A DNA stretch of 63,614 nucleotides, filler included, from Collodictyon triciliatum (lineage: Eukaryota), in NCBI GenBank assembly GCA_043381765.1. It is 6 parts of 6 records of this genome, joined end to end, with 100 filler letters (N's around TTAATTAATTAA, not from the genome) between each part and the next. Parts side by side here need not be neighbours in the genome. Positions count along the whole stretch, not along the records: positions 1 to 12,004 come from JBHJMP010002259.1; 5 more parts are not named here. One strand, given 5' to 3'. Made by a program: the position numbers and the translations under genes. The notes below the pieces were generated by a model, which saw nothing but the letters and a program-made list of their open reading frames with translations, was not told the origin of the DNA and did not search any database. This document shows, piece after piece, positions 1 to 51,792 of the stretch (position 1 is the stretch's first letter; every line of letters begins with the position of its first letter).

Positions 1-12
1 AAAAATAAAAAA

Positions 13-79
<67 letters not shown>

Positions 80-452
80 GGATAAACGACGTGAAGAAAA
101 CCTTCGGTAATTTCTAGATGCCTCCCAACTTAGTTTTGTAGATGTCTACAGAATTCAAGATTATAAACTGCGATGCAAATAGTGTGATATAGTATAGTTC
201 AAATTTTGCATTTGACTATATAAATGAGGGAGAGGGGGTATAATTATAGGCATAATGATGACATTTAGGAGCTTACAATAGAGACCCGAGAACCATATGT
301 GCGACCAGTGCTCATATCTTATTTTTGTATATTGTGGTGATGTTTGTCGGTCAAGAATTTTTGAATCGAAAAAAAATAATTTGTTAGAAAGGGATTGCCA
401 ACAAATTCACGCCACTTACAATTTATTATTATTTTTTTTTTTTTTTAAAAAA

Positions 453-1951
453 TCACCTAAACTTACACTCTAAATTGTGGCAGTCAACTTTTGCACTTGA
501 CGGACATCGAGGTAGCTCATAATGAGGGTCTTCTTTCACTTTTGGAGGAGATGGGGGTTTCGATAGATCCGGAGATAGTTCATTATGTTCCAAACCATCA
601 TCAGCATCCCAGCTCGAGATATCCAAGTCTTCTGTGACCACTCCAACTAATGGCCTAACCCGCACACAAGTGACATACTGTTGTATAATGTCGGTAAAAT
701 CTGAGACTTTTTCGCACTTAAATCCCTTCCCAATCCACCGACGTGCACCCATGACGTCCAAATCAAGTGCCTATAATTGTTCGTCAATAGACGGAAAATA
801 ATCAATTCACCAAAGAGACAAATCATCACGTGGTGGTATGATAAAAAAAACAAGCAACGAGGGTGATTTATACTCACTTGAGAATAATCTTGTAATGCAT
901 CTTGCTGAAAGCCCATATACTTGTAAGTGTCCCCTCTGATTATCCATGCAAACGCATCCTTTTCATTCAAGGCCAAAACTCTCGATGAATCATCCAAAGC
1001 TTCTTTGTAATTTTTCAGCTTGTGATGAAACATAGCCCGTAAGTTGAGAGCATCTGAGTGGGGCTCTACTTGGATAGCCATATCGTAGAAAGTCTGGGCT
1101 CGAATAATGTCACCTGGGCAAAGTACACTCTGTTCAATACTTTGGTGAGAGGTTGAGGTGAATGAGCTAAAAATATACCCAACTTTTCGGACGATATTGC
1201 TGCGTAAAGATATGACTTCATCTATTGAATTTAACATGCAATTTTAGAAAAATATATAAAAAAGAAAAAAAGAGGATATAAGGTTGCTTTCAACAATTAA
1301 ATATGCAAAATAACTAACCGATTTGCTGTTCAATTGTGCAGATAACTCAAAATCTGCGATAGCCTATCAGTATTAGTTACAGATGTTTCTCCATTTTAAA
1401 ACCATCATTTTTTTTTGCATTTACACGTTCATTAAGTCTGATGCAAAAATGCTACTTCTTTCCATCTTCGATTTATTAAGCTATGGTGTGAATATATAAT
1501 AAAATCTACACAAATACCATACTTTCTCATACTCCCCAACCCAGTCATACAGAACGCCTCTCTCGTAATAAACATCAGCCACCTAATGTAAATGTTTTGA
1601 AATAAATAGAGGCGCGGAGAGTATTCTGACAAACATCATCCAACGAATCGTTATAAAGCATTTGATCTATTGCTTTCGTGCATATTACGGCAAAGAGCCG
1701 TGCTCTGCAGACAAGAATAATGTTCATCAAAGAAAAAGGAGTCAAAAGATAAAAAAAAACAACAAAGGAATTATTGAATGTAAGCAAAGTATAGGATATT
1801 GCCACAAACAGACCTGCGCATCTTCAAGACTGGCCTGACCGGAAGAGACGCAGTTCTGCGCCCTCCAAAAGTACCTCAGAGCATCCTTTACGTTTCCGCT
1901 GTCTCTTAAAGAGACGGCCTTTTCCAAGCACTGGGAAACATCAATACTCAT
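453..1951 (-). CDS. TPR-repeat protein (multi-exon; 3' end uncertain, may extend to ~110)
   Basis: GT-AG spliced exons give TPR-like helices: VADVYYERGVLYDWVGEYEK|AIADFELSAQLN, ALNLRAMFHHKLKNYKEALDDSSRVLALN, AFAWIIRGDTYKYMGFQQDALQDYSQ|ALDLD. Confidence 0.75.
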
Positions 1952-2136
1952 GCGCCGTCCTGCATTGTGCGTGTTTGTTGAGCCTTTGAACAGTCGTGTT
2001 GGGAAAAAAAAAAAAGGCAAGTAAAACTGCACCCAGAGAACACGCTCGTGCGAGGGATTCTTGGTGACTTTCTCTCGCTGGCGAGTCCTGATTATTTGAG
2101 ATTCGCTGCGGTGGAGAGCGCGCTAAGGCAAAAAGT

Positions 2137-2167
2137 TTCCGATACCGGGAATCGAACCCGGGTTGCG
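2137..2167 (-). tRNA. 3' half of a tRNA gene, probably tRNA-Glu; the 5' half and anticodon are lost in the N gap
   Basis: Minus strand reads CGCAACCCGGGTTCGATTCCCGGTATCGGAA: T-arm with GTTCGA B-box, acceptor 3' strand TATCGGA, then a TTTTT Pol III terminator. Isotype is inferred only from the acceptor stem. Confidence 0.75.
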
Positions 2168-2757
2168 NNNNNNNNNNNNNNNNNNNNNNNNNNNNNNNNN
2201 NNNNNNNNNNNNNNNNNNNNNNNNNNNNNNNNNNNNNNNNNNNNNNNNNNNNNNNNNNNNNNNNNNNNNNNNNNNNNNNNNNNNNNNNNNNNNNNNNNNN
2301 NNNNNNNNNNNNNNNNNNNNNNNNNNNNNNNNNNNNNNNNNNNNNNNNNNNNNNNNNNNNNNNNNNNNNNNNNNNNNNNNNNNNNNNNNNNNNNNNNNNN
2401 NNNNNNNNNNNNNNNNNNNNNNNNNNNNNNNNNNNNNNNNNNNNNNNNNNNNNNNNNNNNNNNNNNNNNNNNNNNNNNNNNNNNNNNNNNNNNNNNNNNN
2501 NNNNNNNNNNNNNNNNNNNNNNNNNNNNNNNNNNNNNNNNNNNNNNNNNNNNNNNNNNNNNNNNNNNNNNTTGTCGGAGAATAATTCAGCCTTTCAAAAA
2601 TCAGTCTGGTATGACTTGCTCGCTAGCAATGATCGCATGCAAAACTGAATTGTTAGTATTAGGAGATTTCCAAAAGACAATCGAACAACACTTTTATTTT
2701 ATGTTTAAACACTTTCCCTCAATACTCTCTTTCTGATTTCCTCAGATAAAAGAGTAA

Positions 2758-4877
2758 ATGATAAGTCAACAAACCTTACGGATGAAGGAGCTGATAGATA
2801 TTGGTCCAGGATTTCAACCCAGCCATGGTCCAATCAAAGATTGCACAGAGCTAAGTATCAGCTTCGCAAAGCTGACTGCATTCCCTGGTGGGATATGCGA
2901 ACTATCGTTACTGATGCACCTCTCCCTCATTGGCAATAAGATTTCTTTTTTACCAACCGAAATATCAAAGCTAACAGCTCTCACTTTCCTTGATCTTTCG
3001 AGCAACGCCATATCTTCTTTACCGAATGAAATATCGGAGCTGCTCGGGCTGCAAGAAATGTACATATGCGAGAATGAGACTGTAATTTTTCATTTAAGCG
3101 AGACCATATCATATGTAAAGAAAAGGGCCTGCATTCCTATACAAAGCATGAATCTCAAGATAAATTAATTTTTTCTTTATAAAACTTTGACTGGCTAGAT
3201 CGAGTTGCTCCCACTAGGAATCACAGCACTTACAAACCTTAGGAGGCTTATTGTTGAAAATCAAGGCAAAATAAATGTTTACTGGGCTCCTAATCATGTA
3301 AAATGCCTTCCATGTTGGGACAATGACGAGAAACCATGGGGCGGGATGACAATATCGATATCTGAGGCTCTCAGAAGACTGAGGCTATATGATGTCCCTG
3401 TAATGTTTTAATACACAGCATTCTGCCACATATCATTGGGGTGATAATCAAGAAATACCACTCATTTTTTTAAATAGCCCCTAGAGATGAATAGTAGTGA
3501 TTGGGAGCCCACAGAGGAGCAGGTATCGAGCTGGAAGGGACTTAACTTTATGAACTGGAGCACACCATTCCTACCAAACAACTTCACTCAGTTGACTAAT
3601 CTTTGCTACGTGCATATGAGTCATAATAGGGTATAATCCTTGTTCAATATAGAAATCTATACATATTGAGAATCTACTGAATATATCACGTTTAGCTCCA
3701 GGAATTCCCTGTTTTAGTTTATTCGCTAACTTCGATTGAGTTCCTTAACCTTTCCGAGAATCATGTAAGTGAGAATGATATGTAAATTGTAATAAATACT
3801 TAGTTATAAAGAATAAAAATACAGATTTCTGCTCTTCCTGAGGCAATAACCAATTTATGTAACCTTAAGTTATTAACTGCGAATGCAAATAAGGTTGGTC
3901 TTACTTACCATACAAATTAAAAATAGTCAAAAGCTTTATATGTTTTCTATTCAAAATAAAGAGGGTGTGTGTGTGTGTGTGGGGGGGGGGGTTATGATTT
4001 ATGATTTAACAAATGCATTCATATAATTAAGGCCAAAAAACATTTTGCTCGCCAGATATCTGAAATACCAAATATGCGCACTATGACAAATCTGTGTGAG
4101 CTGAATCTTCGAGAAAATCAATTTCTTAAGCATGTTCAAGAGCTCCTTGATTCAATTAATCTGAAGAACAGAGAAATAGTATTTAAGAACATGAAAGTCG
4201 TAGACATACCACACGAACTCACGTCATTGCCGCCGATATTTAAAACATTAAACTTTACCGACAATATGGTATGTCATCAACAAAAATCTGAATGAACCAA
4301 TATTCCAATTTTAAGTCGATTTTCTTAACAATATATAGCTTTCTTTCATTCCAGCGTGGATAGCAGAAATCGATAATCTGTATGATTTCGATCTTGGCAG
4401 TAACAAGGTTTTTCATTTTTATAACCATTTTGATTTCATTTTTTACTACTATTTCATAACACTTTTTTTTACCATCAGTCATATTGTTATCTCTTTTATC
4501 CTTAAATTTTCCTTTTTCATGAATATTTTGAAAAATCTTTTTTCCCTCAAACACTCTATCAGTTCATTAAGTTTCCTGAAAATATCATTCGGATTATATC
4601 CCTTGAGCATCTGAGTTTATCACAGAATTTTGTAAGTACGGATATTATAATTTGGCAAGGAAATGATTCAATGAAGACATTGGAGATATTGAATACTTTA
4701 GTACTTACTCTGAGATATTCTAATATAAAAATGATCGCTAATATACTATTACCTCCAGATATCTCACATACCACATCAAATCTCAACACTCTCAAATTTA
4801 ATCAAATTTTCGATGGCATCCAATATGGTTCGAAAACAACATATACCTAATTCTGAGTTCATGCATGTATATACACT

Positions 4878-4936
<59 letters not shown>

Positions 4937-7900
4937 TTGGTTCATTTCTTACCATATAATAGTTAGAGGACTTCCCAGAATCCATTTGTCAAATTAAGTC
5001 GATGGAATTTCTTGATCTTTCATCCAATAGGGTAATTATATATCAGCATCACCTTAACATATTTTTATCAGTGAACATACATAGTGAACTAATACTGGAT
5101 TATGATATGACCAGATTTCAGAATTGCCACAGTCAATAACAAACTTATTAAATATCAAGACTTTGTTAATGGGCTCAAACAAGGTTTCACAGTGCTATCA
5201 ATTTAACCATAATCATAGAAATATTGTTTTCATAAGAAAGAGGCTTGCTTTATTGAACTCTATTATGCTTTCCAGATTTCCCGATTACCCAATATGCATC
5301 CTATGAAGAGATTGAAATCGATAGATTTCCGTCAGAATGAGTTCAGTGTTCCTCTTCAAGATTTCATCGACTCAGTAGACTTGATGAAAGATGATATTGA
5401 ATTTACTGGAAAAAAGTGCAGGGAGATACCGAGGGATTTAATGCTTCTGCCAATTAAACCTAGACAGATTTACTTACAAAATAATTTGGTGAGTTTTTTT
5501 TTTTACTTCAACTTTGTTTTAAATGGGGTTCTCTGACATTTGTTAATTTTTTTTTTTTTAAAAAAAAGCTTGAGGATTTTCCTTATTGGATGAGTGCCAT
5601 AACAACCATCAACATCCTGAATATCAGCAATAACAAGGTAAAATTTCACTTTTATGTATTTCAGTCTGAAAACTTATCACGGAATAAAAATAGATGAAAG
5701 AATTTCCTGAGGCAGTTTGTGAATTGGCGTTATTGGAGACATTAGATATATCAAGCAATCATATTTCCTACTTATCTCCTGGAATACAAAAGTTACAAAA
5801 TCTGTGCAAATTTATTTTATCAAAAAATCAGGTTTTTTTTTAATTCTTGCAATTCTCAATCCAATGTACACACTAAACCTATGGTAATATACGCATACTA
5901 GGTTTCTGATATACCATGCGAAATAGCCTCTCTATCACACATGAAGCTGCTTGACATTGGTTCAAATCAGGTATCTCTATTTTCTTCTTGATTGATTTTC
6001 CGAGAAAAGCATATTAACAAGAAGAAAAACGAGAGTTGCCAACTAAGATGTTTTTGATGTACATGTTATTCCAGTTTACTCAAATACCAGACCCTATTTA
6101 TGAGATGAACTGGCTAAGATTCCTGAATATATCGAATAACAAGGTAACAATTTCTTACTGGAAACTTATTTTTAAACGTTATAGACTAAACCACTTTTTT
6201 TTTTTTTAGTTTTGCTGCAGCTAATCGTCCTTTTCTTATCATTAGATAGAGGCAATATCAGGGAAAATTACCAGAATGACAGATCTGAAGGAATTACAAA
6301 TAGAATTCGGTGGATATACTTTTGTTAAAAGAGCTCCAAAAGACATCAAAAACTTACCCCTTTGGCACACTTCTAGAGTTAAATATATGACAACCAAGGA
6401 ACGGTCACAAAGCTTTTATAAAACAAATGTTGAAAAATATGAGCCGGAATTTTTAAGCCTTGAAACACCGGAAGAGCTGAAGAAGTTAGACTTTTATGAT
6501 AATAGCCTCGCTTGTGAGAAACTTGAACACGTATTACATTTGGTAGACTCATGGGATTCTTGTACCTCAATAGATTTTTCATGCAATATGGTACGTTATA
6601 TTCGTGTTCTTGCATTGTAGTTTGTAACATGCAGGTCAAAAAAAAATCATAATTGCGGGATTTATTTAGATAAAAGAGCTCCCAAATTCCATGACAAAAA
6701 TGAGCTTGCTCAAAAAAATATCTTTGAATAAAAACCAGGTTTTCAAAATACTCTATCCATATTTGTTTTACCCTTTAGTGTGTCCATACTTGATTTTTAA
6801 CACGTTCAATTTCAGTTATCAGAAATTCCGTCGTGCATATGCTGTCTGTTAATAATTGAATATGTCGATCTATCGTATAATAGGGTTTGATTTATTTTTA
6901 TTTTTATTTTTATTTTTATTTTTATTTTTAAAAACTGATTATACCCTTTGTAATTTTTCCATTAGATATCTGAGATACCAGATATGCGGCACCTGACAAA
7001 CCTTGAAGTTCTGCATCTACAGAATAATAAGTTTAACCACGCCAGCCAGAGTTTTCTTGACCTCATCGACCTCAAAAGAGAGCGAATTCTATTTTCGTCC
7101 AAAAATGTGACTGGTATACCAAGGGAGCTCTCATTTCTGCCACTAAAGGCTACCATGCATGACTTCTCGAGAAACAAAGTACATCACACATGTCATATAC
7201 CCAAAATCTTTTCAAGCTGGCCCAAAATGAGTTGGTTCTCATATCTATTTGTTCCCATAGATATCGGTGATACCCGAGTGGTTTTGCGAAATGAAATGGC
7301 TAGATTCTTGTGACATATCAAATAACCAGGTATCCAAAAAAATGATCAAGGTTTGATTCGGAATCATCTTGATTTACACCGGCATACTCACGATTTCTTT
7401 TACTTTCTACAGATATCACAGTTACCAGCTAATTTCGGTAATTTGTCCAATTTGAGAAGTCTGAAAATAAGCCATAACAAGGTATTTCAAAGGTTCATAT
7501 CATCCGTTGGAATAGCCGATGAATACTCATATATTTTTTTCCCTCCATGCAGTTAACTGAAATACCACTTTTCATAAGAGAAATGACGAAAATTGAATCA
7601 CTTGATTTCTCATACAACGAGGTTTTAAAAGCAATTCTTTCTTTTAATAAATCATTTTAATGAATTGCACCATTAGAAGAAATAAAGATGTTTCCAAATC
7701 GCTATGTTGATGTATTCGAGTCCACATTAATGCAAGTAAATAAAATGATAGATTTCATCCTTGCCTGACATGAGGAGTTTGATTTTTTTGAAATCATTTC
7801 ACATTCACCACAACCAATTCAACAACAATATCCAAGATTTTCTCGATATTACTGACATTAGTGGTGATAAGTTGGTGTATTCAGGGAGGCATATTATAGA

Positions 7901-10900
7901 AATCCCAAACGAACTATTTTTGATGCCATTTAATATTGAAACAGTTGATCTATCAAACAATAAAGTAAGTGTGCAGATGCGATGATCAATACCTCACGGT
8001 ACTTTTTTCAGACTATCCTTTTAACAAGTTTTATCTCTATTAGATAAGTGTAATACCTGAACGTCTGTGTGAAATGACAAGCATCGAGTGTCTTATCTTA
8101 TCAGACAACCAGGTAAATATTACATACACTATAAAGCATAAAATTCATTGTATAATTTTACGAACCTCTATAAAGGAAACTTTTTTTTTAAAAAAAACCA
8201 ATTTATTGGATTTACCCAAATTTAAAAGATAATAATACCATTTTCTTAGATTATTGGAATCCCTGAGAGTATAATCAGGTTAAAAAATCTTCAAACCCTG
8301 AGGTTATCAAACAACCAGGTATATTATTAGTCAATCTATTTAAAAAAATCGCTCTACAACTCACCTTTACCCCTTGCCTTGTCCATAATCTTTGGGCATT
8401 CATTTAGATTAGTCACATCCCATCATCTGTTGCTGGTATGGAGAAATTGGTACACGGTCTAGAAATTCAAGGAAACCCTATCAAAAATGTTCCGAGCACT
8501 GTTATTGACGAGGGTTCAGAGGCAATTATGCATTTCTTACTTGGAAATTTGCTAGGCTCCCAAAAGTGGACTCAAGGGAGGATACTTTTACTTGGAGAAG
8601 GAGAAGCAGGAAAAACTACACTTACTTTGTCTTTACTACAAAAATCTATTGTCTTCAAAAGCACCGTAAATGAAAGCAGAAGCAGAACTGATGGTATCGC
8701 TCCCGTTGAGATTGATGAGTTTGTTTTTGGAGGTTTCTTTGAAGAAAAGTTATCTCTTAAAGTTTGGGATTTTGGAGGACAAGAAGAGTTTCAGGTCACC
8801 CATCCATTCTTTTTATCATCTGGCGCACTTGTTTTGATATTGTACAGACTTGATCAAGGGAGAGAGAAAAATAATCTGGGTCGTTGGATTAAGATGTTGG
8901 ATGACTTTTCTCCTGGCTCAAAGGTGATAATAGTGGGAACTCACAAAGACAAGTCCATTTCGAAGTATGCGGATGAAATGAAGATAGAGATTGATGAAAT
9001 CAAGGAAAATAAAAAACATACATTCGTTAGCTGTGATTTGAAAATAAGCAATAAAAGCGGCCGCGGTGTTGCTGAGCTAAAGAAACAGATATACAGTGGA
9101 ATGTTGCAGCTAAATAATATGAACAAGGATGTCCCTAATTCTTACATCGCTCTTAAAAATTATGTTGAAGAAAGATCAAAAGAACAAAAATATGTTGCTA
9201 TTGACGAAATACACAATTTCGCTACTTCAACGTTAAAATTAAATCAAGGAATGTGCACATCAGCTCTGAAATTCCTCCACGATTTAGGCTCAATTGTTTG
9301 GTACTCTGAAGTTGAGAATTTAAGAGATTACGTATTTCTAGACCCTATTTTTCTTATTAACATATTTCGTTGCATATTCAGTTTCAAAGGAATAGGAGCA
9401 GAGTCAAATGGAATTCTACTATTATCAAGATTGAAAAAGAAAATCGACCAAGAATTCAAAATTACTGTTGATGATAGTGTATATGCTGTAATTATAAATA
9501 TATTTGACCATTTTGGGCTTGGTGTTCGATTTAACAAGGAATGCATAGCGTTTCCATCTTTGATGGAAGAGAATCACAGTACAAAAACAATATGGAATGA
9601 GACTCCTGAAACCTCATGTACATCAGAAATGTCGGTGACCTTAGTAAGTCTGAGTGAATTGCAGATCTCGGATAAAAGTAATATTATTGTCCAAGCATTG
9701 CGGTTCACACAGGGAACCCAACCTGGTGCAAAATACGAAAACCATTTTTTCCGTAATATATCTATAATTAATTTGACTATTGGTAGTTTTGATGATTTAC
9801 CTGGTTGTGACGGAGCAAGTATTGATGGGTTTAAACTTGTTCCAGGGGAGGACATGAGAGTCTTATTTGAAATATCAAAAAACATGATTAAGATTACTGT
9901 CAGAAAGTATGAAATTCCTGATGATAATAGCAAAATTAATTTATTCAATGTATTGCAACTATTAAAGAAAAAGATAGGCAATATAAGACCAAATTTCATT
10001 GAAAGGTGCCGCTTTGAATGTTATATATGCCGAAAACAAGGTCTTAATGGGTATGTACAAACACCTGTTGTATTTGACGAATCCAAAATAAAGAAATGCA
10101 CTATCGGGCATAAAATAAGCTTTCAAGAAATTAAAAGAGGTCGAAGCTACCACGAAGGTTTTTTCATCTTTGCAATACAAACAATCTGAAAATCAAAACA
10201 AATTCGTATATATTAAACCGATGAAAATTAGTTTCTATTATTATATATCATATCATTTTCTTTCAAAAGGAACACAGAGACGATTCGCTACTCAAACAAG
10301 AAAGAAGAGCGTATACCCACGACCAAGAATAGACAAGGTAATAGATATATCATTGATAGATAGGGAGTTGAAAGAAATTTGGGCCCGTGACCCCATCGAG
10401 CCTATGGAGTTTATTGGGAAGGGAGCCTTTGGTCGTGTCTACAAGACTATGCACCAAGGGATTAGCTTGGTGGTAAAAATCCAAACGATTCAACGCACTG
10501 ATGAAAATTCCATGGGACATGTTATCGAATCATTGATTATGGAGAGTAAATATCTCTACGAATGCAGGGAATGTCCAAACATTGTTAAACTGTTCCATGT
10601 GTATAGAAATGATGCTGAATTTTACATGGTAATGGAATATGCAGGAATAACTCTGAAAAAAATGATGGAAAATAACAGGGAAAGAAAGCTCTCTGTCCTA
10701 CAAGTCACATTGTTCTCCAAACAAATTTGTCAAGGCCTAATTTTCATGCACACAAAGAATCTCTACCACGAGGATTTGAAAGCCGACAACATCATGATTG
10801 CGAATGATACTGCAAAGTTAATAGACTTTGGAATAGTAAGTCGCAGGGGTCTAGAAAAGGTTGGATCAAATTTGCCTACAAGATTTGGGGAGTGGATGCA

Positions 10901-11828
10901 AGATGGAACGTCGAATTGGCAAGGACCTGAAATACATGATGTAGTCTGCAAACCTTTTTATGGTGAAGAATTTTATGGGATCGATGGATTTAACATAGGC
11001 CACCGTGGGGAGCCCAGTAATGTGTATGCCTTTGGCATGCTCATATGGTATATGTTTTCTGGAATAGAGCCATTCCTTCAGCACATTAGAGAAATCCCAT
11101 CAATCAGTGGTTCGAGGCCAAGTATCACAACTGATACGCCTCGAGATTTTCGGCACCTTATAAGGTCTTGTTGGAGGCAAAATTATAAGTTAAGACCTGA
11201 TTTACAAGCTATCTCGCTTTACCTTAATGAGATAGGACATCCCGATGCTCAAATTCCTCAAGAAGTCATGGACAGGATACTATGCATTCGTTACTCAAAT
11301 CTCTTGGATATGTATCGTGGAGAATTTGTAGAGTTTTTAAATGACCATGGTCTCCATAGGTTGAGCGAAAATATATCGTTTGAAAATTGGAACAGAGTTG
11401 TTGAAATTAAGGACCGATTGAATGAAATAGACATGGTGGACACTTATCACATAAACACAGAGGAAGCAGAGCAATTTGCAGCTTTATCAGAGGAGAAATT
11501 GGAACACTCCAATGAAAGTAGTATCAAGTGTTTCGTCAAAGATTTAAGTCACCAGCAACTAATGGACCATTTAAAAAAGAAGGAAAACTCAAAGAAACTG
11601 TCTGACAAAGTAAAAAACTTGAGACTCGATGGCAGTGCTCTGGCCAAAATTCAGACTCAAATGTTTTATTCAAATTACTCTATATCAAAGGAAGAAATAT
11701 CGAAGGCGTTGGTAATTATTCAAGAAAAGCTTAGCCAAGATAAAAATCCAACTGCAAACGACCCTATCCATCCATTTCTAGAAAGCAGCTCGGATGAACT
11801 CGTGCAACAAGTCCATACTGAGAATGAT
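2758..11828 (+). CDS. Roco protein: LRR array - Roc GTPase - COR - protein kinase - SAM-like domain (5' start uncertain; 3' likely continues off the scaffold)
   Basis: About 24 phase-0 GT-AG introns in the LRR region. Roc motifs GEGEAGKTT, SRTDG, WDFGGQEEF, GTHKD. COR-like ALKFLHDLGSIVWY...VFLDPIFL. Intron 10158-10269 joins the two large ORFs (HE-G-TQRR). Kinase motifs GKGAFG, VVK, HEDLKADN, DFG, GPE. Confidence 0.9.
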
Positions 11829-11896
11829 GTAATACAATCAACATTCTTTTTTTCCGGCAGATATAGGCAACATATTTGTATTTTTATCTGTGTCTG

Positions 11897-12004
11897 CGTC
11901 TATGTCTATGTCTATGTCTATGTCTATGTCTATGTCTATGTCTATGTCTATGTCTATGTCTATGTCTATGTCTATGTCTATGTCTATGTCTATGTCTATG
12001 TCTA
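11897..12004 (+). repeat. (GTCTAT)n microsatellite at scaffold end
   Basis: Perfect hexamer repeat running into the linker. Confidence 0.95.
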
Positions 12005-12104
12005 NNNNNNNNNNNNNNNNNNNNNNNNNNNNNNNNNNNNNNNNNNNNTTAATTAATTAANNNNNNNNNNNNNNNNNNNNNNNNNNNNNNNNNNNNNNNN
12101 NNNN
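12005..12104. other. Artificial scaffold linker 44N-TTAATTAATTAA-44N (same at 24099-24198, 36189-36288, 48273-48372, 60233-60332)
   Basis: Identical 100-nt spacer five times, carrying stops in all frames; flanking pieces are ~12 kb and of decreasing length. Confidence 0.97.
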
Positions 12105-13435
12105 TTTATATCGGAAGAATTTGGAGTACGCCATGGCCATCGAGAATTGCGGAGAATCAGGCGTAATGGACCGCCTTTGGTTCTTCAGGCGAAAAAAAAA
12201 ATGGCGACGGTGCTCCGTATGAGATGGGACGTCGTGAGCGCCATTCTCCTTTGTTGTTCAGGACGGCTGTGGTCGGGGTTGCATTCGAGGAGTGAAATAT
12301 CTTTGCATTTTTTGGCGGTGCGAAGCTCCCATCCTTTTGGAATGTGACTTGTTGCAGGATGAAGAACTGTTTCCTTCTCTCGACTTGATGATGCAGAAGC
12401 CTTTTGCTCTATCTCAGCAAAGTTGGCCTGCACCAGCATGTAGTTGGGTAGACTTGCACATTTCACAGTTTTCATACAGAACCTTCCACCGAGCTGGTAG
12501 CGGCTCGGGCAGTGTTTGGCGGGGGTGACGGGATTCTGCTCTCACAGAGCTGTGCTTTGAAATTCGGACATAAGCGATGGATAAGGTGCCCCATTCCACG
12601 CTGCCAGAATCCTTTCGGATGGGTAAGCATATCTGTCCATCATCTCACCGTGAGCGATGTCCATGCAATGCCAGGCGTTATGAGTCCCAGCCCTCCCTCT
12701 GTAGGTGGCTTAGAGAGCGCCTTGATTTTGTACTTTTGATTCTTCGTAGTGATGAAGTTGCAACAGATGTCTTCCAGCTCCTTCAGCCTCTGAATATTCA
12801 GCAAAGTGCCTTTCATGTTGTAGATAAGGGTCGACAACATGAGTTGGTTCCATAGCCTCGCTTTTCCGATGTCTGAAAGATGGAATATTTTCCAAGAGGC
12901 GATTATGGACTTGGTATTGTTGACCAGCTTGTCCCACTTTTCTGTGCAGCCGCTCCCAAACATTATACCCAGGTATCTGAGTATGTGGTTTGGGTATTTC
13001 CAGTCGATGTTTTCTGGTAGGATTTCACCGTCCTGTAGGCCGAATAGGATACCTTCTGTATTGTTGAAGTTGATTTTACCTCCAACTGCAAGTGTGTATT
13101 CTTGCATGCACTTATTTGCCAGGATAGCGCCTTCAGGAGAGCGAGGAATGAAGGCTGTATCGTCGGCATATTGCAGGAGGAATTGGTTGTGGATTTTGTT
13201 GTTGTTTCTGAAGTGGATTGCAAGGCAGTCGGCTACAAAGTTAAAGAGAAGCGGCTCCAGAGAGCACCCTTGGTAGAAGCTGCTTTGTCTCTGGATTATG
13301 TCGGTAGGGCCGTGTGCAGTCAGAACCCTAGTTGCGGCGTTGTCGTGTAGCTTCTTGATAAGTGTGGTGAACTTCGAGCAGAATCCTCGCTTTTTTAGGA
13401 TGATTTCTAGGGCTTCATGATTCACATAGTCATAA
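12105..13435 (-). mobile_element. Degenerate, 5'-truncated non-LTR (LINE, L1/Tx1-like) retrotransposon RT fragment
   Basis: RT motifs YDYVNH, QGCSLEPLLF, LQYADDT, LRYLG, EGGLGL. Premature TGA at 12640-12642 with further stops downstream. No endonuclease or early RT domains upstream. Confidence 0.85.
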
Positions 13436-13696
13436 TCAAGCCTCTCTGACAACCACCCTAAACCCGAGACCGAAAACGACAAGAAGCCTTTTTCCGCCAA
13501 GCGCAAGCAGACGAAATGAGCAATATAATACCGCATTATAGTTACGGTACATGTATGCACACAGAGACCTTGCGACTCTATTTGAACCATTGGCGTTTTC
13601 TTTTTTTCTTTTCCACCACGGCATCAACACCAAGAAGAAGCCACGCCACACAACACCAAACAACCCAGAGTCGTGATTGAATCCCAATAGGCTGAG

Positions 13697-24053: not shown

Positions 24054-24908
24054 CTGCGTGAGATATAAGGCGGCTGAACAAGTCCAAGGAACGCAGTGNN
24101 NNNNNNNNNNNNNNNNNNNNNNNNNNNNNNNNNNNNNNNNNNTTAATTAATTAANNNNNNNNNNNNNNNNNNNNNNNNNNNNNNNNNNNNNNNNNNNNAT
24201 GTATGTATGTATGTATGTATGTATGTATGTATGTATGTATGTATGTATGTATGTATGTATGTATGTATGTATGTATGTATGTATGTATGTATGTTTTATA
24301 CGCCATGGATGTAAATTGATTCCAGCATTATGAGAAATACTTTTATTAAAAAAAACTTCAAGAAACAGAAATAATTGAAAATAATAATAAACTCCAAAAT
24401 TACATGGATAAAAGAGTGAATGTCAGATTGTTGAGAAGTATATGAGGGTGATGGCCTTTACTACAAATAATAAAATGAATACTCATCATCGTTGTAAATT
24501 TTTGTTTATGTTAAATTGTATGCTTCAACCACCTTGCTGTTGAAAAAAGCTAAACCAATTATAGTAGACTCAGTAACGAAAATTGTAGAATCATGCTTGA
24601 AAATAAAGATATGTAAGACAAATAAAATACAGCCATTAGCTGGGGGATTTCTGATGAAAAATATGACGAAATCATAATATATGTTCTTTATTAGTATTAC
24701 TATTATATTTGTTCGAATTTTCTGGTGGAGATAAACTTTAAAATGAAGTAAACTTGGTCCAGGTGGCATGGATATGCATAATATTTAATTAAGGTTTATT
24801 CGGAAAAGTCAAGAAAAGGTGAAATGAGATAAAATTAAATGAAATTAATATAGGAAAGAGATAGTGCTTTGAGAGAGGGTTTTATCTCGTTGGAAAAAAG
24901 GAGGAAAT

Positions 24909-27101
24909 CTAGAAGATTCCCAATATCTCGTAACCATCATTATCGTCGTCAGAATCTTGCTCTATATCCCCTGTAAAGTACGATCCGATTGCGTCGATTT
25001 TTTTGTATATACCCCCGTCGTTACGAATTAGGGTTTCCAGGTGAGCCCTTCTTTGTAATATTACAAATACTTTTTTTGTTGTTAGCTGAGTTCGAGGTAT
25101 TTTAAATTTTCTAAAGCATCCTTGTGATTCGACACTGAATATAAGCAAAACACCAGGTTGCTTGTGCGAAAAACGAATTGTAAAACACGGAGTTGCAAGG
25201 GTGCGTAACCTAACTTCTTCTGTATTTGGGTCAGTAGGTCCCTGCAGCCACCCTTCTCTCCATATTGCCCCCAGTCCGGGATCATGTTTCAAGGTCTTTT
25301 CTGCCTCGTAAAGGATTGGCCAGACCTTGGTTTTAAATAACTGATAAGACAAATGGATGGTGCTTTGTATTTGTGATTGTGTGGATGGCGCTGCAGTTAT
25401 CGATACTTCTGTGTTTAATGCCCCATGATATGCTATATGACAGAGATAGTAAAAGGATTCCATTTCAAAGGAGCGACCGAATCGTGAGGCCCAAGTTTTT
25501 GATATAAAGTCGAACACCACATCGATTTGAACCTGGCTTTCTTGTGCTCTGGCTCCCAATGATTCCCAAATAATTTTTGCTATCTGGTCTCTTTGGTGGT
25601 TGGCTTGCGCGCTAATCACAACAGGTACTGCTATTGGTTGGATGAAGCTACTTCCTTCGGATGCTGTCGGATTTTCATCCACAAATTCTTGGCCAAAGTA
25701 GTTGGTGTGATTACCGTCAGCTGTTTCATAACTGCTCTGCATATTTCGCGAGTAACTTTCACGCTGCAGAGAGTGCGTGAAATGCGTAGTGTCTGGTATT
25801 GATGATTCATCCCAAGAGCCCATAAATTGGACCCAATAGTAGCCTCCTTCGCTACTGTGGTTGAGGCGCATGTTGTGGAAAGAAAATATCGCATAATTTT
25901 CTGCAGTTTCTAAAACAATTCCATTTGGATGAGTGATTGGCACGAGAGAGGGGTCACGACGGGCAACGATGGAACCAGATACGACTGGAGTAGAACAAGA
26001 ATTCTCTAAAATCTTTGTCGAGGCCTTTGTACTGAATCTCTCAAGCTCTGGGCTGCATATGGATATGAGTGTTGATTCAAAGCGCGTAGAGGGAGAGCAG
26101 GTCGACCGGGTGTCGTGCAGAGAGGCTGTCACATGGAACATTCTCCATTCTTGCGCACTGACGAGGCACCCGCATCGAACATTAACGCGAATGTGGTAAT
26201 GAGGATTTGTCAGTTGCTTGTAGATGACCACTCCGTAGTCTGGCTGTTGAATTACACTCATTTCTAGTGTGTGAGTGCAAGAACGCAGGAATATGCAAGG
26301 AGGTATTGTTGACGATTCCGTTCTTGCAATATGGCTGATTTTTTGCGGTCTCTGTTTTTTTTCCTTCTGTGGGTTTTGTTCCACCGATGTCTGTTGCTTG
26401 GAAATTGGTCGTCCTCGTTTCTTCTGCTGGGTCGTTTTTACAGTGATATCATCGCCTAGCCCGACCAAATTATTGCGCTTGTGGACAACCACATCTGCTG
26501 TGACATTCTCCTTGGTTATTTCTGCCGTGAGATCGGAACTTTCAAAAGATTCGTTTGGGTTAGGATGATCTATGTGGACATGGACTCCAAAGGAAGTATT
26601 ATTATTTGATTTCAAAATGCTCTTTTGTCTGCGATTGCAGTTGCTATGATTCTCTGGGGAAAGAGTTTGTGAGGTGAGCAGGCGATGGGATTGTAGGGAT
26701 CGAAAACTACTTGGACATGAATTCACTGGAATCGGTTTAAAGGCGTCATACAGCTCAACCCCGTGGGGCATGTGGCTGCTTTGCATATCTACTTCTGAGT
26801 GCTGTATTGGTTGCAAGAACAGTACTGGTAAAGTTGTCGTGAAAGGATACGAGCAAGTCGTATTTGAAGGTTGCGTGAATTTTTGGGATGATTCCAAGGA
26901 CTCCGTATATTCATGGGGCGGGATGTGTGGGGAAAATGTTAAGGAGTCAGGGAATAGGCAGGGAGGGGAAACAAGGCCATGATTATCGTTGACTAGAGAC
27001 AGGCTCTCAGACAACAAGTTATGGGGTTGATGTGCCGCATTATTCTCGGGAAGGCCCGAGTTGACCTTGACTTCCATCGCTGTTTTTCTTGTGGTGGTCA
27101 T
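24909..27101 (-). CDS. STAT-like transcription factor (Ig-fold DNA-binding region, linker, SH2, C-terminal Tyr), single exon, 730 aa
   Basis: SH2 core IWREGWLQG...CFTIRFSHKQPGVLLI with the invariant Arg; terminal DDDNDGYEILGIF; DBD-like VIQQP..VIYKQL, FSFHNMRLNHSS, PIAVPVVISAQANHQ; low-complexity N-terminus with KKRGRP. Confidence 0.75.
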   Translation of the reverse strand: MTTTRKTAMEVKVNSGLPENNAAHQPHNLLSESLSLVNDNHGLVSPPCLFPDSLTFSPHIPPHEYTESLESSQKFTQPSNTTCSYPFTTTLPVLFLQPIQHSEVDMQSSHMPHGVELYDAFKPIPVNSCPSSFRSLQSHRLLTSQTLSPENHSNCNRRQKSILKSNNNTSFGVHVHIDHPNPNESFESSDLTAEITKENVTADVVVHKRNNLVGLGDDITVKTTQQKKRGRPISKQQTSVEQNPQKEKKQRPQKISHIARTESSTIPPCIFLRSCTHTLEMSVIQQPDYGVVIYKQLTNPHYHIRVNVRCGCLVSAQEWRMFHVTASLHDTRSTCSPSTRFESTLISICSPELERFSTKASTKILENSCSTPVVSGSIVARRDPSLVPITHPNGIVLETAENYAIFSFHNMRLNHSSEGGYYWVQFMGSWDESSIPDTTHFTHSLQRESYSRNMQSSYETADGNHTNYFGQEFVDENPTASEGSSFIQPIAVPVVISAQANHQRDQIAKIIWESLGARAQESQVQIDVVFDFISKTWASRFGRSFEMESFYYLCHIAYHGALNTEVSITAAPSTQSQIQSTIHLSYQLFKTKVWPILYEAEKTLKHDPGLGAIWREGWLQGPTDPNTEEVRLRTLATPCFTIRFSHKQPGVLLIFSVESQGCFRKFKIPRTQLTTKKVFVILQRRAHLETLIRNDGGIYKKIDAIGSYFTGDIEQDSDDDNDGYEILGIF

Positions 27102-27523
27102 GTCTTGGTGTGGTATTTTTTTGGGTTATCGATGAATTTTTGTTTTGTTANNNNNNNNNNNNNNNNNNNNNNNNNNNNNNNNNNNNNNNNNNNNNNNNNN
27201 NNNNNNNNNNNNNNNNNNNNNNNNNNNNNNNNNNNNNNNNNNNNNNNNNNNNNNNNNNNNNNNNNNNNNNNNNNNNNNNNNNNNNNNNNNNNNNNNNNNN
27301 NNNNNNNNNNNNNNNNNNNNNNNNNNNNNNNNNNNNNNNNNNNNNNNNNNNNNNNNNNNNNNNNNNNNNNNNNNNNNNNNNNNNNNNNNNNNNNNNNNNN
27401 NNNNNNNNNNNNNNNNNNNNNNNNNNNNNNNNNNNNNNNNNNNNNNNNNNNNNNNNNNNNNNNNNNNNNNNNNNNNNNNNNNNNNNNNNNNNNNNNNNNN
27501 NNNNNNNNNNNNNNNNNACGGAC

Positions 27524-35894
<8,371 letters not shown>

Positions 35895-36016
35895 CTAGAT
35901 TTTGAGTGCATTAAGGTGGCTGCAATTTTTAGACTCAATAAATTGTGCGACCTTCAAGCATAAATTGGAGTCCAGAAAACTCTTTCGATGTTTGCTTTTT
36001 TTTTGTTTTTCTCTTT

Positions 36017-36188
36017 ATTTTCTGTTATTTTCTGTTATTTTCTGTTATTTTCTGTTATTTTCTGTTATTTTCTGTTATTTTCTGTTATTTTTTTCTTTGT
36101 TTCTTTGTTTCTTTGTTTCTTTGTTTCTTTGTTTCTTTGTTTCTTTGTTTCTTTGTTTCTTTGTTTCTTTGTTTCTTTGTTTCTTTGT
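36017..36188 (+). repeat. Compound minisatellite (TTTTCTGTTA)n then (TTCTTTGT)n at scaffold end
   Basis: Visible 10-mer and 8-mer tandem arrays. Confidence 0.9.
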
Positions 36189-36288
36189 NNNNNNNNNNNN
36201 NNNNNNNNNNNNNNNNNNNNNNNNNNNNNNNNTTAATTAATTAANNNNNNNNNNNNNNNNNNNNNNNNNNNNNNNNNNNNNNNNNNNN

Positions 36289-37521: not shown

Positions 37522-40500
37522 ATGAATAGAATGAAAGCGAAGGTTATTCTTGCTTTTATTTATGCAATCACACTGAAAGCCAATGCAGCAAGAGGGGCGA
37601 TAGGAAGTATATTTTATACCAATTCCACCTCTGAATGTTATTTTTTGATAAATATTTCAAAAAACACATATATATATCCAAAAAAAACACATTGCAGAAA
37701 TCGAAATGAATCATCAAAACCCTCCTCTTAAGATTGGACGTATCAATCTATGGAACCAATGACCCACCAGAGTACTGCTGCTGTTGCTAGAGGAGAACTA
37801 ATTTACTTTGTTGGAGACGAGTAATAATTTATTCATCTTTAATGGAATACATCATATCAAAAAATTCGAAATCCCTTCGGTTCCTATGAATGAATCTAAC
37901 AACACTGAAAATAATGAAGAGGGAATGCAGAATATGAATCCTCAATTCCAATATTCGAGAGGCTTTGGATATTCAATACAAGTTGTATTTAGATTTATTT
38001 CTTTTATTGATACTCATAATTAAATTTATATTGATATATTAAATTCGGCTTCGTTGGGGTTCTATAAAAATAATTCTTTAAAAAATACTATAGCAAGCCT
38101 TACTTGGAGATGGGAAATGACAAAAGGAGTATACCCCGAACGCAGATTATTTTATTGCTCGTCTATTATTAGAAACAAGGTTTATTCTCATTTACTAGGA
38201 TAGAGTATTTTTATTTCAAATTCCACACTAACATGTAAGCCTAAATTTTATAAACATCTTCACCATCCTGCACAAAATTGAAAGGAAGAATAAAAAAGTC
38301 TAAATTTTATATTGAATAACTTTAATTTTAACCCCTCTTATATTATCTGATATGCTAGTTTTACATATTCGGCGGATCGTTGTGGAAAGGGTTTATCAAT
38401 GCCAATGACCTTCTATCCCTAAATCTTGATACGTACGAATGGGAGAATGTGAAATTTTTATCCCCGAACGCAATAAAGCCCGCGAGCAAAATCAGTTGTG
38501 CCACCTATAAAAATGAAATATATGTTTATGGAGGAACAAATGGGTACATAGAATACAACTTTTGGGTTTTCAATACGGGTATGTTTCTCTTACATAAAGA
38601 GAATGGGCATATGAATGCTTTTACATAAATGAAAAAAAAAATGTTCAATTTTTTTTAGAAACCTCTATGTGGAGGGCCTATCATTCAGGATTGCAAAAAA
38701 ACGATGAAAATCAGGCTTTACTTCGATTTACTCAAATGGAGACTTACAAGGACACTCTAATATTTTTTGGTGGGATGGACGCATATGATATTTTCCATTC
38801 CAAAGTTTGGACCTTCAACATGAGTAAAATTTTCAAAAATTTTTTTTATAGAATGGATATAATATTAATTATGAAAATATTTTTAAGCTTCAAATTCTTT
38901 CATAGCAAGTTTGAAATGGTATCCGCCAGTTGATATTCCATTACAAGCGGTTATATTTGCTGCCCCGGTAATACATAAAGACAAAATGTTTATTTTTGGG
39001 GGTGCATATGACAGCGGAGGTTCCAAGCACACGAATGATGTTATTGTTTATGATTTAAGTAATCTTAATATATCTTTTAAAGTTTTGTCTCAATAACGAA
39101 ATGAAAAGAGATTTTGGTATACTTTCTAACAGATTATTCTTCTATTATGTTTACTTTCTATTAATTCTAAACACTTTTTTTGTTCTTTGGATTTGTTGTT
39201 TGAATGTCAATTTAGAAAAAAATACCGTTGATGTCCGAAAATTTCCCATTCCAAACTATTTGGAGACTTATCCAATCAAAGCGGCATCGCCTAGAATCAT
39301 GCCAGCATTTTCTAGAGTTGAGGATAAGATTTACTACTTTGGAGGTCAATCGCCAACAACAAGAATAAATGATGTTTGGGTGCTTGATACAAGTATAAAT
39401 TAATTATAATTCGCCATCCATTCCAATTATTTTCTTAAAATAAAACACGTCGTTAGAAAAAAACCTCCATTTCAATCTTTCATCTACTCTATGCTCTTTG
39501 AAAAATCCACTTCTCTGTTAAGAATTTTACACTCTAGATACTGTAACATGGATAAATAGTAGCAATTCGCTTTATCCGGTTGGAAGGATAAACCCTCATA
39601 TTGCATCCATGAACGAAAACATAATATATATGTTTGGAGGGGAAATAAGACTTTTCCTTACATCTCAGCCCATAAACGATCTATGGGCTTTTGACATAAG
39701 TACACCGAAAAAAAAACTTTTTTATGAATGTACATTTATATGCATATTTTTTTCTTTTGAGATATTGATTAATATATAAAATTTAGATTCAATGAAATGG
39801 AAAAGATTAAAAGAAGAAGTTGTGTGTCTCCCTTCCCAAGATGACTGTGCTCCAGCTGTTTTATATGCTGTATATTATCTAGATAAACGAACCCATGAAT
39901 GCATTTTCTTTATCTCCCATAAACTAAATATATGAAAATAAAGATAATTATAATAATACACATCTAACCATTTGTAACATTCTATTTCTGAAGGCTTTTG
40001 GAGGCTATGAAAATAGTCTTTATCTCATCGGTGGATCCTTCCCTTGGCCATATAAGCCGGTTTTTAAAAGATTTTCTTTGTGTAATATTCACAAATCATA
40101 CATATCAGAATATAATCTATTTCAAATTTAATATTATTCATAGTAAAAACATTTATAACAAAGCTCTTGGAAAATGGCTCAACATGGAGGGTATTGGAAA
40201 CGATGGAATGGAATTTGGTATACGCTTCAACTCTGCCTATTCGTCGATTGGCTCAAAATTTTACATATGGGGCGGGACGAATTCTGATAATACTCCGATA
40301 TCAAATGGAACATATATATACGACTTTGAAACAAAGAAGGGTCGCATACTCTACACCCAATCCCAAAGTCCAATCATCCGAAAGAATCCGCAAGGATTTT
40401 CTGTGAATGAGAATTTTTGTTTCATAGATACATGGATAAGTGATACTTTGATTGACAGAGAATTGTGGTGCCTAACAAAAGGTTCTTTTTTCAACTCATT

Positions 40501-46500: not shown

Positions 46501-48272
46501 AATAAGACATTTATAGTCACTTATGATTTTTTCAATCTATATAGGATGTATGCGAGGAAGGTGGTTAAACAATTTTTTTATGGAAAACGGAAACAAAAAA
46601 AAAAGAATTCATATAATCAATTGAAACAATTCAATAAGCGCCAACATTAAACTGACGATTTAATGTCCTTACCGTAGATCAAGACATTGAAAGATTTCCC
46701 TACTTTTTGGTCATTGGATGTGTCGTTGGATTTACTACGGTTGGATTGATCTGTGTTTTTCTGGTCTATCGAAAAGGTATTATCAAGAAGATGAGAGATG
46801 CTGAAAAAAAACTATACGGGGTTATCGACCACAATGAGCTCGTATATGGAAAAATACTTGGTGCTGGTGGATTCGGGGAGGTATTGTTAAACTTGTATTT
46901 AAATGCTTTTTGTTTTACCAAACCAAATTCATTGTAACGATCTCTTCCTTAAGGTTTACAGAGGTACATGGAGGGGGACTGATGTAGCCATTAAAAAGCT
47001 TCTTAATAAGAATATAACCAAGGCAGCTATAGAGGAATTTGAAGCTGAAGTCAGTGTAATGGTGTAAGAATTTGAATCATCGACCCTAACCCAAAAAAAA
47101 CTGATTCGTATAATTATTGAATTTAAATCGATTGCATTATTTATTCTATTTTTATTTAGAGAATTGCGACATCCAAACATTGTTTTGTTTATGGCTGCTT
47201 GCGTAGATCCCAAATTCTTATGTATTGTTTCCGAATTCATGGTTCTTGGAAGCTTGTATGATGTATGGTTCACATTCTTAGATTTTACTTGATAATGATG
47301 AATTTATCAGGTTTATAAAACGTTTTATTAATTGGTGAAAAATGGAATAGATACTCCACAATAATTGCGTAGACATTGATGAAAATATGAAGTATTCCTT
47401 TATAAATGACGCGGCAAAGGGTAATTTCTTTACGGCAATCTTTTTTATACTAGCCCTAACGCTAAAATACATTTTCTTAACACCATGAAATGAAAAATAG
47501 GTCTACAGTACCTTCACTTATCAAATCCTTCTATTCTCCACAGAGATCTGAAAAGCCCTAATCTATTGGTAGTTAATATATTAAAATCCTGTTAAAATTC
47601 ATAATAAAATTAAACTTTCTAAGGAATGATTTAACAATCCTAGCTTGATGAAAGGTTCAATTGCAAAATCAGGTATTTGATTTTTTACTAGATTACACAT
47701 TTTTTTATATAAAACCCTTTCAGGATACAACAATTACATAAAACTAACCCTTTATTTCATTACATTAAAGTGATTTCGGACTCAGTGGAGTGCAAACAAC
47801 TTTAAAGAAAAACTCGGCTCTACCAGGGACTCTTCTTTGGATGGCACCTGAAGTTATCAGAGGAGAAGAATATACAATGAAATCAGATATTTATAGCTTC
47901 GGTATCATCATATGGGAAATCATCAGTAGACAAGAGCTCTACCCGGTTTCTTATAATTATTTTTTCAATAATTAATTTTTTTTAATGCCTATGAAACGAA
48001 TGATTATTTCAAATATTTGTAAAATTTTGTTATATCAGGGCGAATTGGCGGAATCGGTGATCTACAGAGTTCAGGAAGGGACTCTGAGGCCAAGCTTTTT
48101 ACCTGAATATGAATGCACGGAAGATTTAAAACTTCTTTCAGAAAAATGCTGGTCTCATGATCCGAAAGAGAGACCTACATTCAGTGAAATAACACGGCAG
48201 ATAAGTCTTAAAAGAAATGAATCGGCGTCCAATTCTTTCACCTCTGGTTCTATGACTAGTACCAAAAAAAAT
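37522..48272 (+). CDS. Single-pass receptor kinase: signal peptide - 12 Kelch - CUB - Cys-rich (GCC2/GCC3-like) - 12 Kelch - CUB - EGF-like - TM - TKL kinase (3' truncated)
   Basis: Hydrophobic N-terminus; repeated xxGG...W Kelch exons; CUB-like SDGSRDFKYFPGTDCSWNI and EDGSGIAMYLTNTNCTWIL; CVPCPSGSSQPLTDQTFC; TM LVIGCVVGFTTVGLICVFLVY-RK; kinase GAGGFG, VAIKKL, HRDLKSPN, DFG, GTLLWMAPE. Confidence 0.88.

Positions 48273-50377: not shown

Positions 50378-51792
<1,415 letters not shown>

Follow-up and report, generated by a model that had tools for sequence, protein, structure and literature searches.

The window analysed here, a stretch of 63,614 nucleotides from Collodictyon triciliatum (assembly GCA_043381765.1), opens with a 12-kb scaffold (JBHJMP010002259.1, positions 1 to 12,004) that carries a Roco gene on its + strand, between 2758 and 11828. 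The gene comprises 28 predicted exons, whose joined coding sequence (6495 nt, 2165 codons) contains no stop codon, and all 27 of its introns have GT-AG ends. The product would begin with an arm of about 40 leucine-rich repeats (LRRs) upstream of a Roc GTPase domain, followed by a COR domain and a protein kinase domain. This LRR-Roc-COR-kinase identity, first assigned by reading the DNA, is borne out by Pfam (Roc 7e-19, COR-A 4e-14, Pkinase 5e-36). The ATG at 2758 sits immediately after an in-frame stop, and is probably the correct start codon, since the predicted N-terminus resembles those of three relatives discussed below, P0061, P0062 and P0093; these are complete transcript open reading frames (ORFs) that have an N-terminal motif in common with the Roco product. 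The gene appears intact, although the assembly cuts it short at its 3' end: the frame enters a (CTATGT)n microsatellite at the scaffold end (11890-12004) and then the Ns that begin at 12005, so that the C-terminus is cut off.

The introns of the LRR part are highly regular. Position 3082 is the first base of intron 1 and 8407 the last base of intron 26, and within this span (3082..8407, +) 26 GT-AG introns alternate with exons 2 to 26. The original prediction had counted about 24 consecutive phase-0 introns here; its span is exact and its phase right, all 26 being phase 0, and the count alone had to be corrected. That the introns share one position in the repeat is true of 24 of the 26; in the exon table, these have an Asn-x codon pair directly on their upstream side and [ILVFM]xx[ILF]P on their downstream side. 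Intron 1 departs from this by lying one codon further on, after N-E-T, and intron 2 by its location within an irregular module. Among the 25 internal exons (E2 to E26), 17 measure 69 nt and encode one 23-residue LRR each, as had been noticed for most exons; four others measure 213 nt, one 138 nt and one 345 nt, with E2 at 201 nt and E3 at 153 nt. All 25 are symmetric (phase 0-0), so that skipping or duplicating any one of them would preserve the frame, and on this point too the first reading of the DNA was sound. The introns of the LRR part are 56 to 162 nt long (median 82.5) and AT-rich (GC 0.28, versus 0.36 in exons). Their density, 8.2 per kb of coding sequence (26 in 3186 nt), contrasts with 0.30 per kb in the remainder of the gene (1 in 3309 nt): the Roc-COR-kinase stretch, 8408-11828, indeed has the single intron expected for it, of 112 nt and phase 1, at 10158-10269.

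In order along the + strand, exon 1 (2758..3081, 324 nt), with an in-frame stop upstream, carries the start codon and four LRRs uninterrupted by introns (Pfam LRR_8, 9e-10). Exon 2 (3199..3399, 201 nt) encodes one LRR and the first half of an irregular module bearing the motif APxx[IV]xxLPCW, and exon 3 (3478..3630, 153 nt) the second half of that module and one LRR. The 69-nt exons with one LRR each, recognized by a pattern scan and entered in the exon table, are exons 4 (3696..3764), 5 (3825..3893), 7 (4339..4407), 8 (4563..4631), 9 (4759..4827), 10 (4963..5031), 11 (5115..5183), 13 (5569..5637), 15 (5902..5970), 16 (6075..6143), 18 (6670..6738), 19 (6816..6884), 21 (7261..7329), 22 (7413..7481), 23 (7553..7621), 25 (8044..8112) and 26 (8250..8318). 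Among them are interspersed the four 213-nt exons, 6 (4056..4268), 12 (5276..5488), 20 (6966..7178) and 24 (7752..7964), which align with one another and encode a 71-residue module composed of an LRR, a degenerate repeat and an LRR. Exon 14 (5694..5831) is 138 nt long, or 2 x 69, and encodes two LRRs (Pfam LRR_8 7e-4, LRR_14 2.5e-5); exon 17 (6246..6590), at 345 nt or 5 x 69, encodes a 115-residue irregular module containing RAPKDIKNLPLW, for which Pfam gave no match. Exon 27 (8408..10157, 1750 nt) holds the last LRRs, the Roc GTPase, COR and a CxxC...CxxGH motif; intron 27 (10158..10269, phase 1, GT-AG) would join Roc-COR to the kinase; and exon 28 (10270..11828, at least 1559 nt) encodes the protein kinase and a tail of about 200 residues, its 3' end being cut by the scaffold end. 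Three of the introns contain microsatellites: (GT)n with a run of G in intron 5 (3952-3997), (TTTA)n in intron 9 (4868-4950) and (TTTTTA)n in intron 19 (6890-6930).

The splice model of the LRR exons is predicted from sequence signals and homology. As a chance control, open frames of at least 20 residues matching AG|[ILVFM]xx[ILVFA][PS]...N-x|GT were scanned mechanically over the window. The Roco region returned 28 rows, several of which are alternative donors sharing one acceptor; no frame was found on the reverse complement of that region or on the + strand of the rest of the window, and a single frame of 20 residues on the - strand of the rest. The predicted junctions were also examined in single BLASTP high-scoring segment pairs (HSPs) with the relatives, a junction being called clean when no gap occurred within 3 residues of it. 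With P0093, whose HSP covers model residues 60-1459, 23 of 26 junctions were clean; the corresponding figures were 20/20 for P0097, 13/14 for P0060, 11/13 for P0061, 14/19 for P0062, 7/7 for P0063, 9/10 for P0094 and 3/3 for P0096. As P0060 to P0063 are labelled in their source as Trinity transcript ORFs, this collinear alignment to transcript-derived relatives supports the predicted splicing. A shorter form of exon 2 (3199-3297, using the donor GTAAAA, with the alternative donor at 3298) was rejected in favour of the long form, because the latter encodes the conserved LPCW motif, which recurs in E17 and in relatives. Contigs from a run, X1, whose kind we guessed, share one tenth of the sampled words. 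One of 905 nt matches 10546-11450, inside the kinase exon, with one mismatch, and crosses no exon joint.

Beneath the regularity of its exons, the LRR arm has a second level of order. It is made up of six super-repeats, each consisting of one irregular module (71 or about 115 residues) followed by two to five regular 23-residue LRRs; in the exon table the irregular modules begin at model residues 109, 273, 459, 645, 806 and 946, and super-repeats 2 and 3 are equal in length (186 residues). The four 213-nt exons align with one another without a gap, at 28-44% protein and 48-52% DNA identity. The second irregular module, of about 115 residues and with the motif APxx[IV]xxLP[CL]W, is encoded by exon 17 and also by exons 2 and 3 combined. 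Both kinds of module are found in relatives: a profile of the 71-residue module has three matches in P0060 (4e-10, 6e-12, 2e-6), and one of the 115-residue module matches P0060, P0061 and P0093, with five matches in P0093, where six modules of the LPCW type were counted by eye; the sixfold organization of the arm is thereby also seen in a distant relative.

The copies are strongly diverged. The mean nucleotide identity among the 17 exons of 69 nt is 0.45, and the best pair, E21/E25, reaches 0.64; at 45% identity between intragenic repeats, synonymous sites would be saturated for dN/dS. Self-BLAST with a word size of 7 revealed no intron-to-intron similarity, the sole matches (41 nt and 34 nt) both lying over exon ends. 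A hidden Markov model (HMM) of the LRR, built from 19 regular units, was run against all six frames of the whole window and gave 24 matches, 23 of which are annotated exons of the Roco gene. Neither this search nor the pattern scan of the reverse complement detected any pseudo-LRR exon in introns or in antisense orientation, and no second Roco gene lies on the 12-kb scaffold. The twenty-fourth HMM match, at 51151-51210 (-) on another scaffold, is spurious, being antisense to an exon of a Ras-family small GTPase (51104-51490, +; Pfam Ras 2e-22).

The Roc domain (Pfam Roc 7.3e-19, above cut-off) has an intact P-loop, GEGEAGKT, and an intact switch II, with DFGG, and is directly followed by COR (Pfam COR-A 3.8e-14, above cut-off). 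Pfam gave no match to COR-B (PF25497); nevertheless, the alignment with relatives stays conserved up to residue 578 of exon 27. The solved structures nearest to Roc-COR are 4wnr (7e-26) and 6hlu (6e-19), both prokaryotic Roco proteins, and LRRK2 (1e-18). After COR, at the end of exon 27 (9995-10100), comes the CxxC...CxxGH motif, in which Cys538, Cys541 and His568 are invariant in an alignment, A1, of the window protein with five relatives; no Pfam family matched it, and it is probably a small zinc-binding element. In the kinase (Pfam Pkinase 4.7e-36), GKGAFG, the LVVK lysine, HEDLKADN and DFG are all present, and it is accordingly of the non-RD type. Its nearest solved structure is that of RIPK1 (3e-20), followed by CDK1/2/3 and STK10, and no LRRK chain figures among the best 60 of its 379 solved-structure matches. 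No hydrophobic stretch of 19 residues occurs outside the COR core, and the protein is therefore presumably cytosolic. In the model, whose C-terminus is cut, Pfam detected no ankyrin, armadillo or WD40 domain. PADLOC gave no match for Roc-COR and three of its relatives and matched the kinase to generic kinase models alone, and the ESM Atlas returned generic Roco clusters alone.

An exhaustive search of 1.84 billion representative sequences yielded 16 proteins matching Roc-COR at E <= 1e-30, the best five being 35-40% identical; over the best matches (P0060, P0061, P0062, P0093, P0063, P0094 and P0096) identity in Roc-COR is 30-40%. P0093, 38% identical in Roc-COR, aligns with the model in one HSP over about 1400 residues. 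All close relatives have some effector domain beyond COR. P0060, P0061, P0062 and P0093 are LRR-Roc-COR proteins with DUF4062, AAA_16 or both, AAA_16 being present in three of the four, and P0063, P0094 and P0096 have the architecture LRR-Roc-COR-PH. The ATPase of the former group, found in place of the kinase, is of the AAA_16/AAA_22, STAND-like type. A protein kinase is present in none of the nine closest relatives scanned. These differing effectors indicate that the effector end was swapped in the course of evolution, and the kinase of the window protein may be a separate acquisition, joined to Roc-COR independently. The window protein has one or both irregular LRR modules in common with P0060, P0061 and P0093, and the Cys/His motif after COR with the other five sequences of A1, whereas it differs from P0060 to P0063, P0093, P0094 and P0096 in carrying a kinase and in the number and type of its irregular modules. 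A limited literature search turned up no description of an LRR-Roc-COR-DUF4062/AAA_16 architecture. As a lead only, a passage in a paper on the Mnemiopsis genome includes DUF4062 with the domains of a figure on NACHT-type immune receptors (PMC11797021). Among metagenome contigs, a single-protein scan found no genomic relative, and an alignment-based scan found 79 loci, all at 22-28% identity and too distant for exon comparison. A single-sequence AlphaFold2 model of P0060 residues 1-604 was unusable (mean pLDDT 35.4).

These observations are, in our judgement, probably best accounted for by a Roco kinase, old and cytosolic, with an LRR arm built by tandem duplication of exon-plus-intron cassettes and of multi-exon blocks, the copies having since diverged. 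According to this scheme, a cassette made up of a single 69-nt LRR exon and one intron would have been duplicated serially in tandem long ago, and blocks of several exons would have been duplicated later. The exons of 138 and 345 nt, two and five times 69, look like later losses of introns. The copies would then have diverged to the level of unrelated LRRs, leaving the exon periodicity as a fossil of domain assembly. An origin by cassette duplication explains both the uniform phase of the introns and their uniform position in the repeat; since the copies are now strongly diverged, their periodic exons give no ground for thinking that diversification is under way today. If the protein works as other Roco proteins do, its LRR solenoid would bind a ligand or other partner, and the C-terminal kinase would be gated by the GTPase switch of Roc-COR.

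Arrays of this kind have been described in other lineages. The original prediction had invoked a brown-alga precedent, and this precedent is real: in the available portions of two papers, the ROCO genes of Ectocarpus, Saccharina and others are described as having each LRR on its own exon, and as subject to intense exon shuffling, with splice variants and with positive selection acting at the repeats' concave face (PMC3341825; PMC11378527). The hallmarks of shuffling reported there for Ectocarpus are intronic and antisense pseudo-exons and recombined recent paralogues (PMC3341825). The Collodictyon triciliatum gene resembles the brown-alga LRR-ROCO genes in its LRR array, N-terminal to Roc, with one LRR to an exon and a uniform exon length and intron phase. 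However, the brown-alga exons, as given in the same portions, are 72 bp long and phase 2, with the consensus GxxPxxL...NxLx and the boundary after NxLx (PMC11378527; PMC3341825), whereas those described here are of 69 nt and phase 0 and end after N-x, so that the brown-alga boundary falls two residues later in the repeat. These differences in length, phase and boundary mean that the arrays are not homologous and arose independently, by convergence. Moreover, the brown-alga proteins are described as lacking a kinase, COR being detected in 18 of 111 (PMC3341825; PMC11378527), unlike the present protein, in which a kinase domain is predicted, joined through the putative 112-nt intron; and the pseudo-exons and recent exon copies of the algae are absent here, as tested within one gene.

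In Tetrahymena, according to the accessible text of one study, LRR exons exactly 90 bp in length number about 50,000, and for over 96% the intervening introns are phase 2; the arrays are read there as clonal exon expansion and occur in thousands of genes, many of them young, with recent copies and associated retrotransposons (PMC6564038). The present gene has in common with those described there extended series of LRR exons identical in length, and a single intron phase; on the other hand, the 90-bp length, the phase 2, the non-Roco context, and the recent copies and retrotransposons documented in that text are none of them seen here. Fixed-length, single-phase arrays of LRR exons are thus a recurrent outcome of cassette duplication, and whether copying is ongoing varies by lineage. 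With LRRK2 and LRRK1, the protein shares a multidomain, presumably cytosolic organization and the order LRR-Roc-COR-kinase (the kinase join being predicted), as well as a Roc-COR match to LRRK2 at 1e-18. It differs from them by its roughly 40 LRRs with irregular modules, by the CxxC...CxxGH motif after COR, and by a kinase best matched by RIPK1 and then CDKs, LRRK2 being outside the best 60 of 379 matches.

Several observations count against the view of an old array that no longer changes. The LRR junctions and the single fixed isoform are predictions, the X1 contig lying inside the kinase exon, and symmetric exons do allow in-frame skipping. Resemblance among the exons that follow each 71-residue module, assessed in a position-in-block test, is not significant (P = 0.16). 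Because relatives differ in the number and type of their irregular modules and in their C-terminal effector, comparison within the family indicates that modular rearrangement has occurred over long periods. RIPK1 is the nearest match of the kinase, which is of the non-RD type, and the title of a reference listed in PMC6564038 links non-RD kinases with pattern-recognition signalling. Finally, two short X1 contigs match 33-34 nt each, at 8881-8913 and 10767-10800, with 3 mismatches each, and their flanks, translated by eye, appear to encode a different Roc and a different kinase of the HEDLKADN type, so that at least one paralogous Roco kinase probably exists in the same or a related organism. 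Much of this could be taken to mean that the gene is one member of a diversifying repertoire of recognition receptors, whose symmetric one-LRR exons are actively skipped, duplicated or exchanged, through alternative splicing and recombination between paralogues, so as to vary ligand specificity, as had been proposed from the DNA and as is proposed for the ROCOs of brown algae. All 25 internal exons of the LRR part are phase 0-0, the brown-alga precedent, in its available text, includes splice variants (PMC11378527; PMC3341825), the relatives vary in their LRR modules and in effectors that include a DUF4062/AAA_16 STAND-like ATPase, the kinase is non-RD and RIPK1-like, and there is the hint of at least one paralogue. 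Nevertheless, we regard a diversifying repertoire as rather unlikely. The exons are old, with a mean nucleotide identity of 45% and a maximum of 64%, and the introns have no homology to one another; there are no intronic or antisense pseudo-exons, for which introns of 56-162 nt leave scant room in any case; the LRR domain is collinear with that of P0093 over about 1400 residues; and the 12-kb scaffold holds no second Roco. Variable positions occur on both faces of the repeat, with an entropy of 2.6-3.1 bits for the x residues in LxxLxL and of 2.9-3.4 bits on the helix side, a within-protein measure that says little about selection. The proposal of a variable, shuffling sensor is therefore upheld in that symmetric exons permit shuffling; the testable hallmarks of shuffling in progress are all absent.

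If cassettes were not duplicated, introns could have been gained many times over, each gain independent of the others and each at the spot favoured within its repeat, for instance a proto-splice site after N-x. Twelve of the 26 exons of the LRR part end in AAG or CAG before GT, which is proto-splice-like, and the introns have no detectable mutual similarity, although this is also expected after long divergence of short, AT-rich introns. The usual proto-splice consensus has G as the downstream exon base, whereas 25 of the 26 exons concerned have A, T or C there. Equal 69-nt exons and gap-free 213-nt exons fit copying, and inheritance by duplication is a far more parsimonious account than 24 gains at an identical codon boundary; intron gain seems to us highly improbable. 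Very unlikely too, if a little less so, is that the model is in part an artefact, LRR-Roc-COR ending at a stop at 10187-10189 and a separate kinase gene starting from an ATG inside what we call intron 27, or that the locus is a decaying pseudogene. The join at 10158-10269 is predicted and spanned by no transcript, none of the nine closest relatives scanned has a kinase, the ATG within the putative intron is in frame, and the only contig placed on the gene (10546-11450) lies within the kinase exon. Yet a separate kinase gene would begin about 35 nt beyond the preceding stop, intron 27 has GT-AG ends and a GTTTTT donor found also in introns 7 and 14, and every close relative continues past COR into an effector domain; 2165 stop-free codons and intact catalytic motifs argue against decay. 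A bolder and quite doubtful extension is that these proteins form an undescribed protist family of intracellular LRR-Roc-COR receptors, NLR-like in function, and hence a second, independent invention of the solution found by the brown-alga ROCOs. In such a family, a very long LRR sensor made from exon cassettes and irregular LPCW modules would be coupled, by the Roc-COR switch and the zinc motif, to interchangeable effectors (the non-RD RIPK1-like kinase here, DUF4062 and a STAND-type ATPase in P0060, P0062 and P0093, PH in others), and the cassette structure would let the number of modules change over evolutionary time.

The remainder of the window holds a variety of other features. Paired runs of 44 Ns with 12 bases between them occur at 12005-12104, 24099-24198, 36189-36288, 48273-48372 and 60233-60332; the 12-base linker, read at the first site only (12049-12060), is an all-frame stop. 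The pieces between these pairs (12004, 11994, 11990, 11984 and 11860 bp) are separate scaffolds, apparently in order of length. Since the window strings separate scaffolds together, no two genes on different pieces are neighbours. Assembly gaps of the ordinary kind are present at 2168-2570 and 27151-27517, the former lying on the Roco scaffold between the Roco gene and an upstream open frame with a TPR_1 match (647-1243, -; 2e-8). On the other scaffolds, a reverse-transcriptase-like frame at 12640-13623 (-) matches RVT_1 at 1e-6, just below the Pfam cut-off; GC around it is 0.41-0.47, versus about 0.35 elsewhere, and it is probably a retroelement fragment. An open frame of 738 residues (24909-27125, -) matches no Pfam family, and a search of 5.8 billion proteins, covering those of 405-1290 residues, brought up no homologue for it at E <= 0.001. 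Exons of a cytoplasmic dynein 1 heavy chain occupy 27900-36188 (-), with matches to solved entries at 1e-35 to 1e-41; they match 4646-residue chains named dynein 1, which we take to be human, and the 3vkg/3vkh chains, presumably from Dictyostelium, about equally well. One of them is adjoined by a microsatellite of the ATT/ATA type (about 31800-32080), which reads as a long poly-Ile. The region 38359-48272 (+) contains a run of frames of 76-114 residues, with Kelch-type matches in 7 of 13 scanned; beyond these come a hydrophobic segment and fragments of a kinase, the last of which matches PK_Tyr_Ser-Thr at 3e-5. The region probably encodes a Kelch-repeat receptor-like kinase, also split into many small exons. 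No Rfam family was found in the window.

Were the diversifying-receptor idea true after all, C. triciliatum would stand for a second lineage with a diversifiable repertoire of receptors made up of Roco proteins, and this would bear on how frequently LRR-based variable recognition has been invented in eukaryotes. As it stands, the gene belongs to a small and sparsely sampled Roco subfamily, set apart by its irregular LRR modules and its Cys/His motif, and with effector domains that have been swapped. It provides an independently evolved LRR exon array of fixed length, 69 nt and phase 0, against the 72 bp and phase 2 of the brown algae and the 90 bp and phase 2 of Tetrahymena, as given in the available text of those studies. 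It also indicates that symmetric one-repeat exons can outlast by far the duplications that produced them, and therefore that exon symmetry by itself is no evidence of ongoing shuffling.

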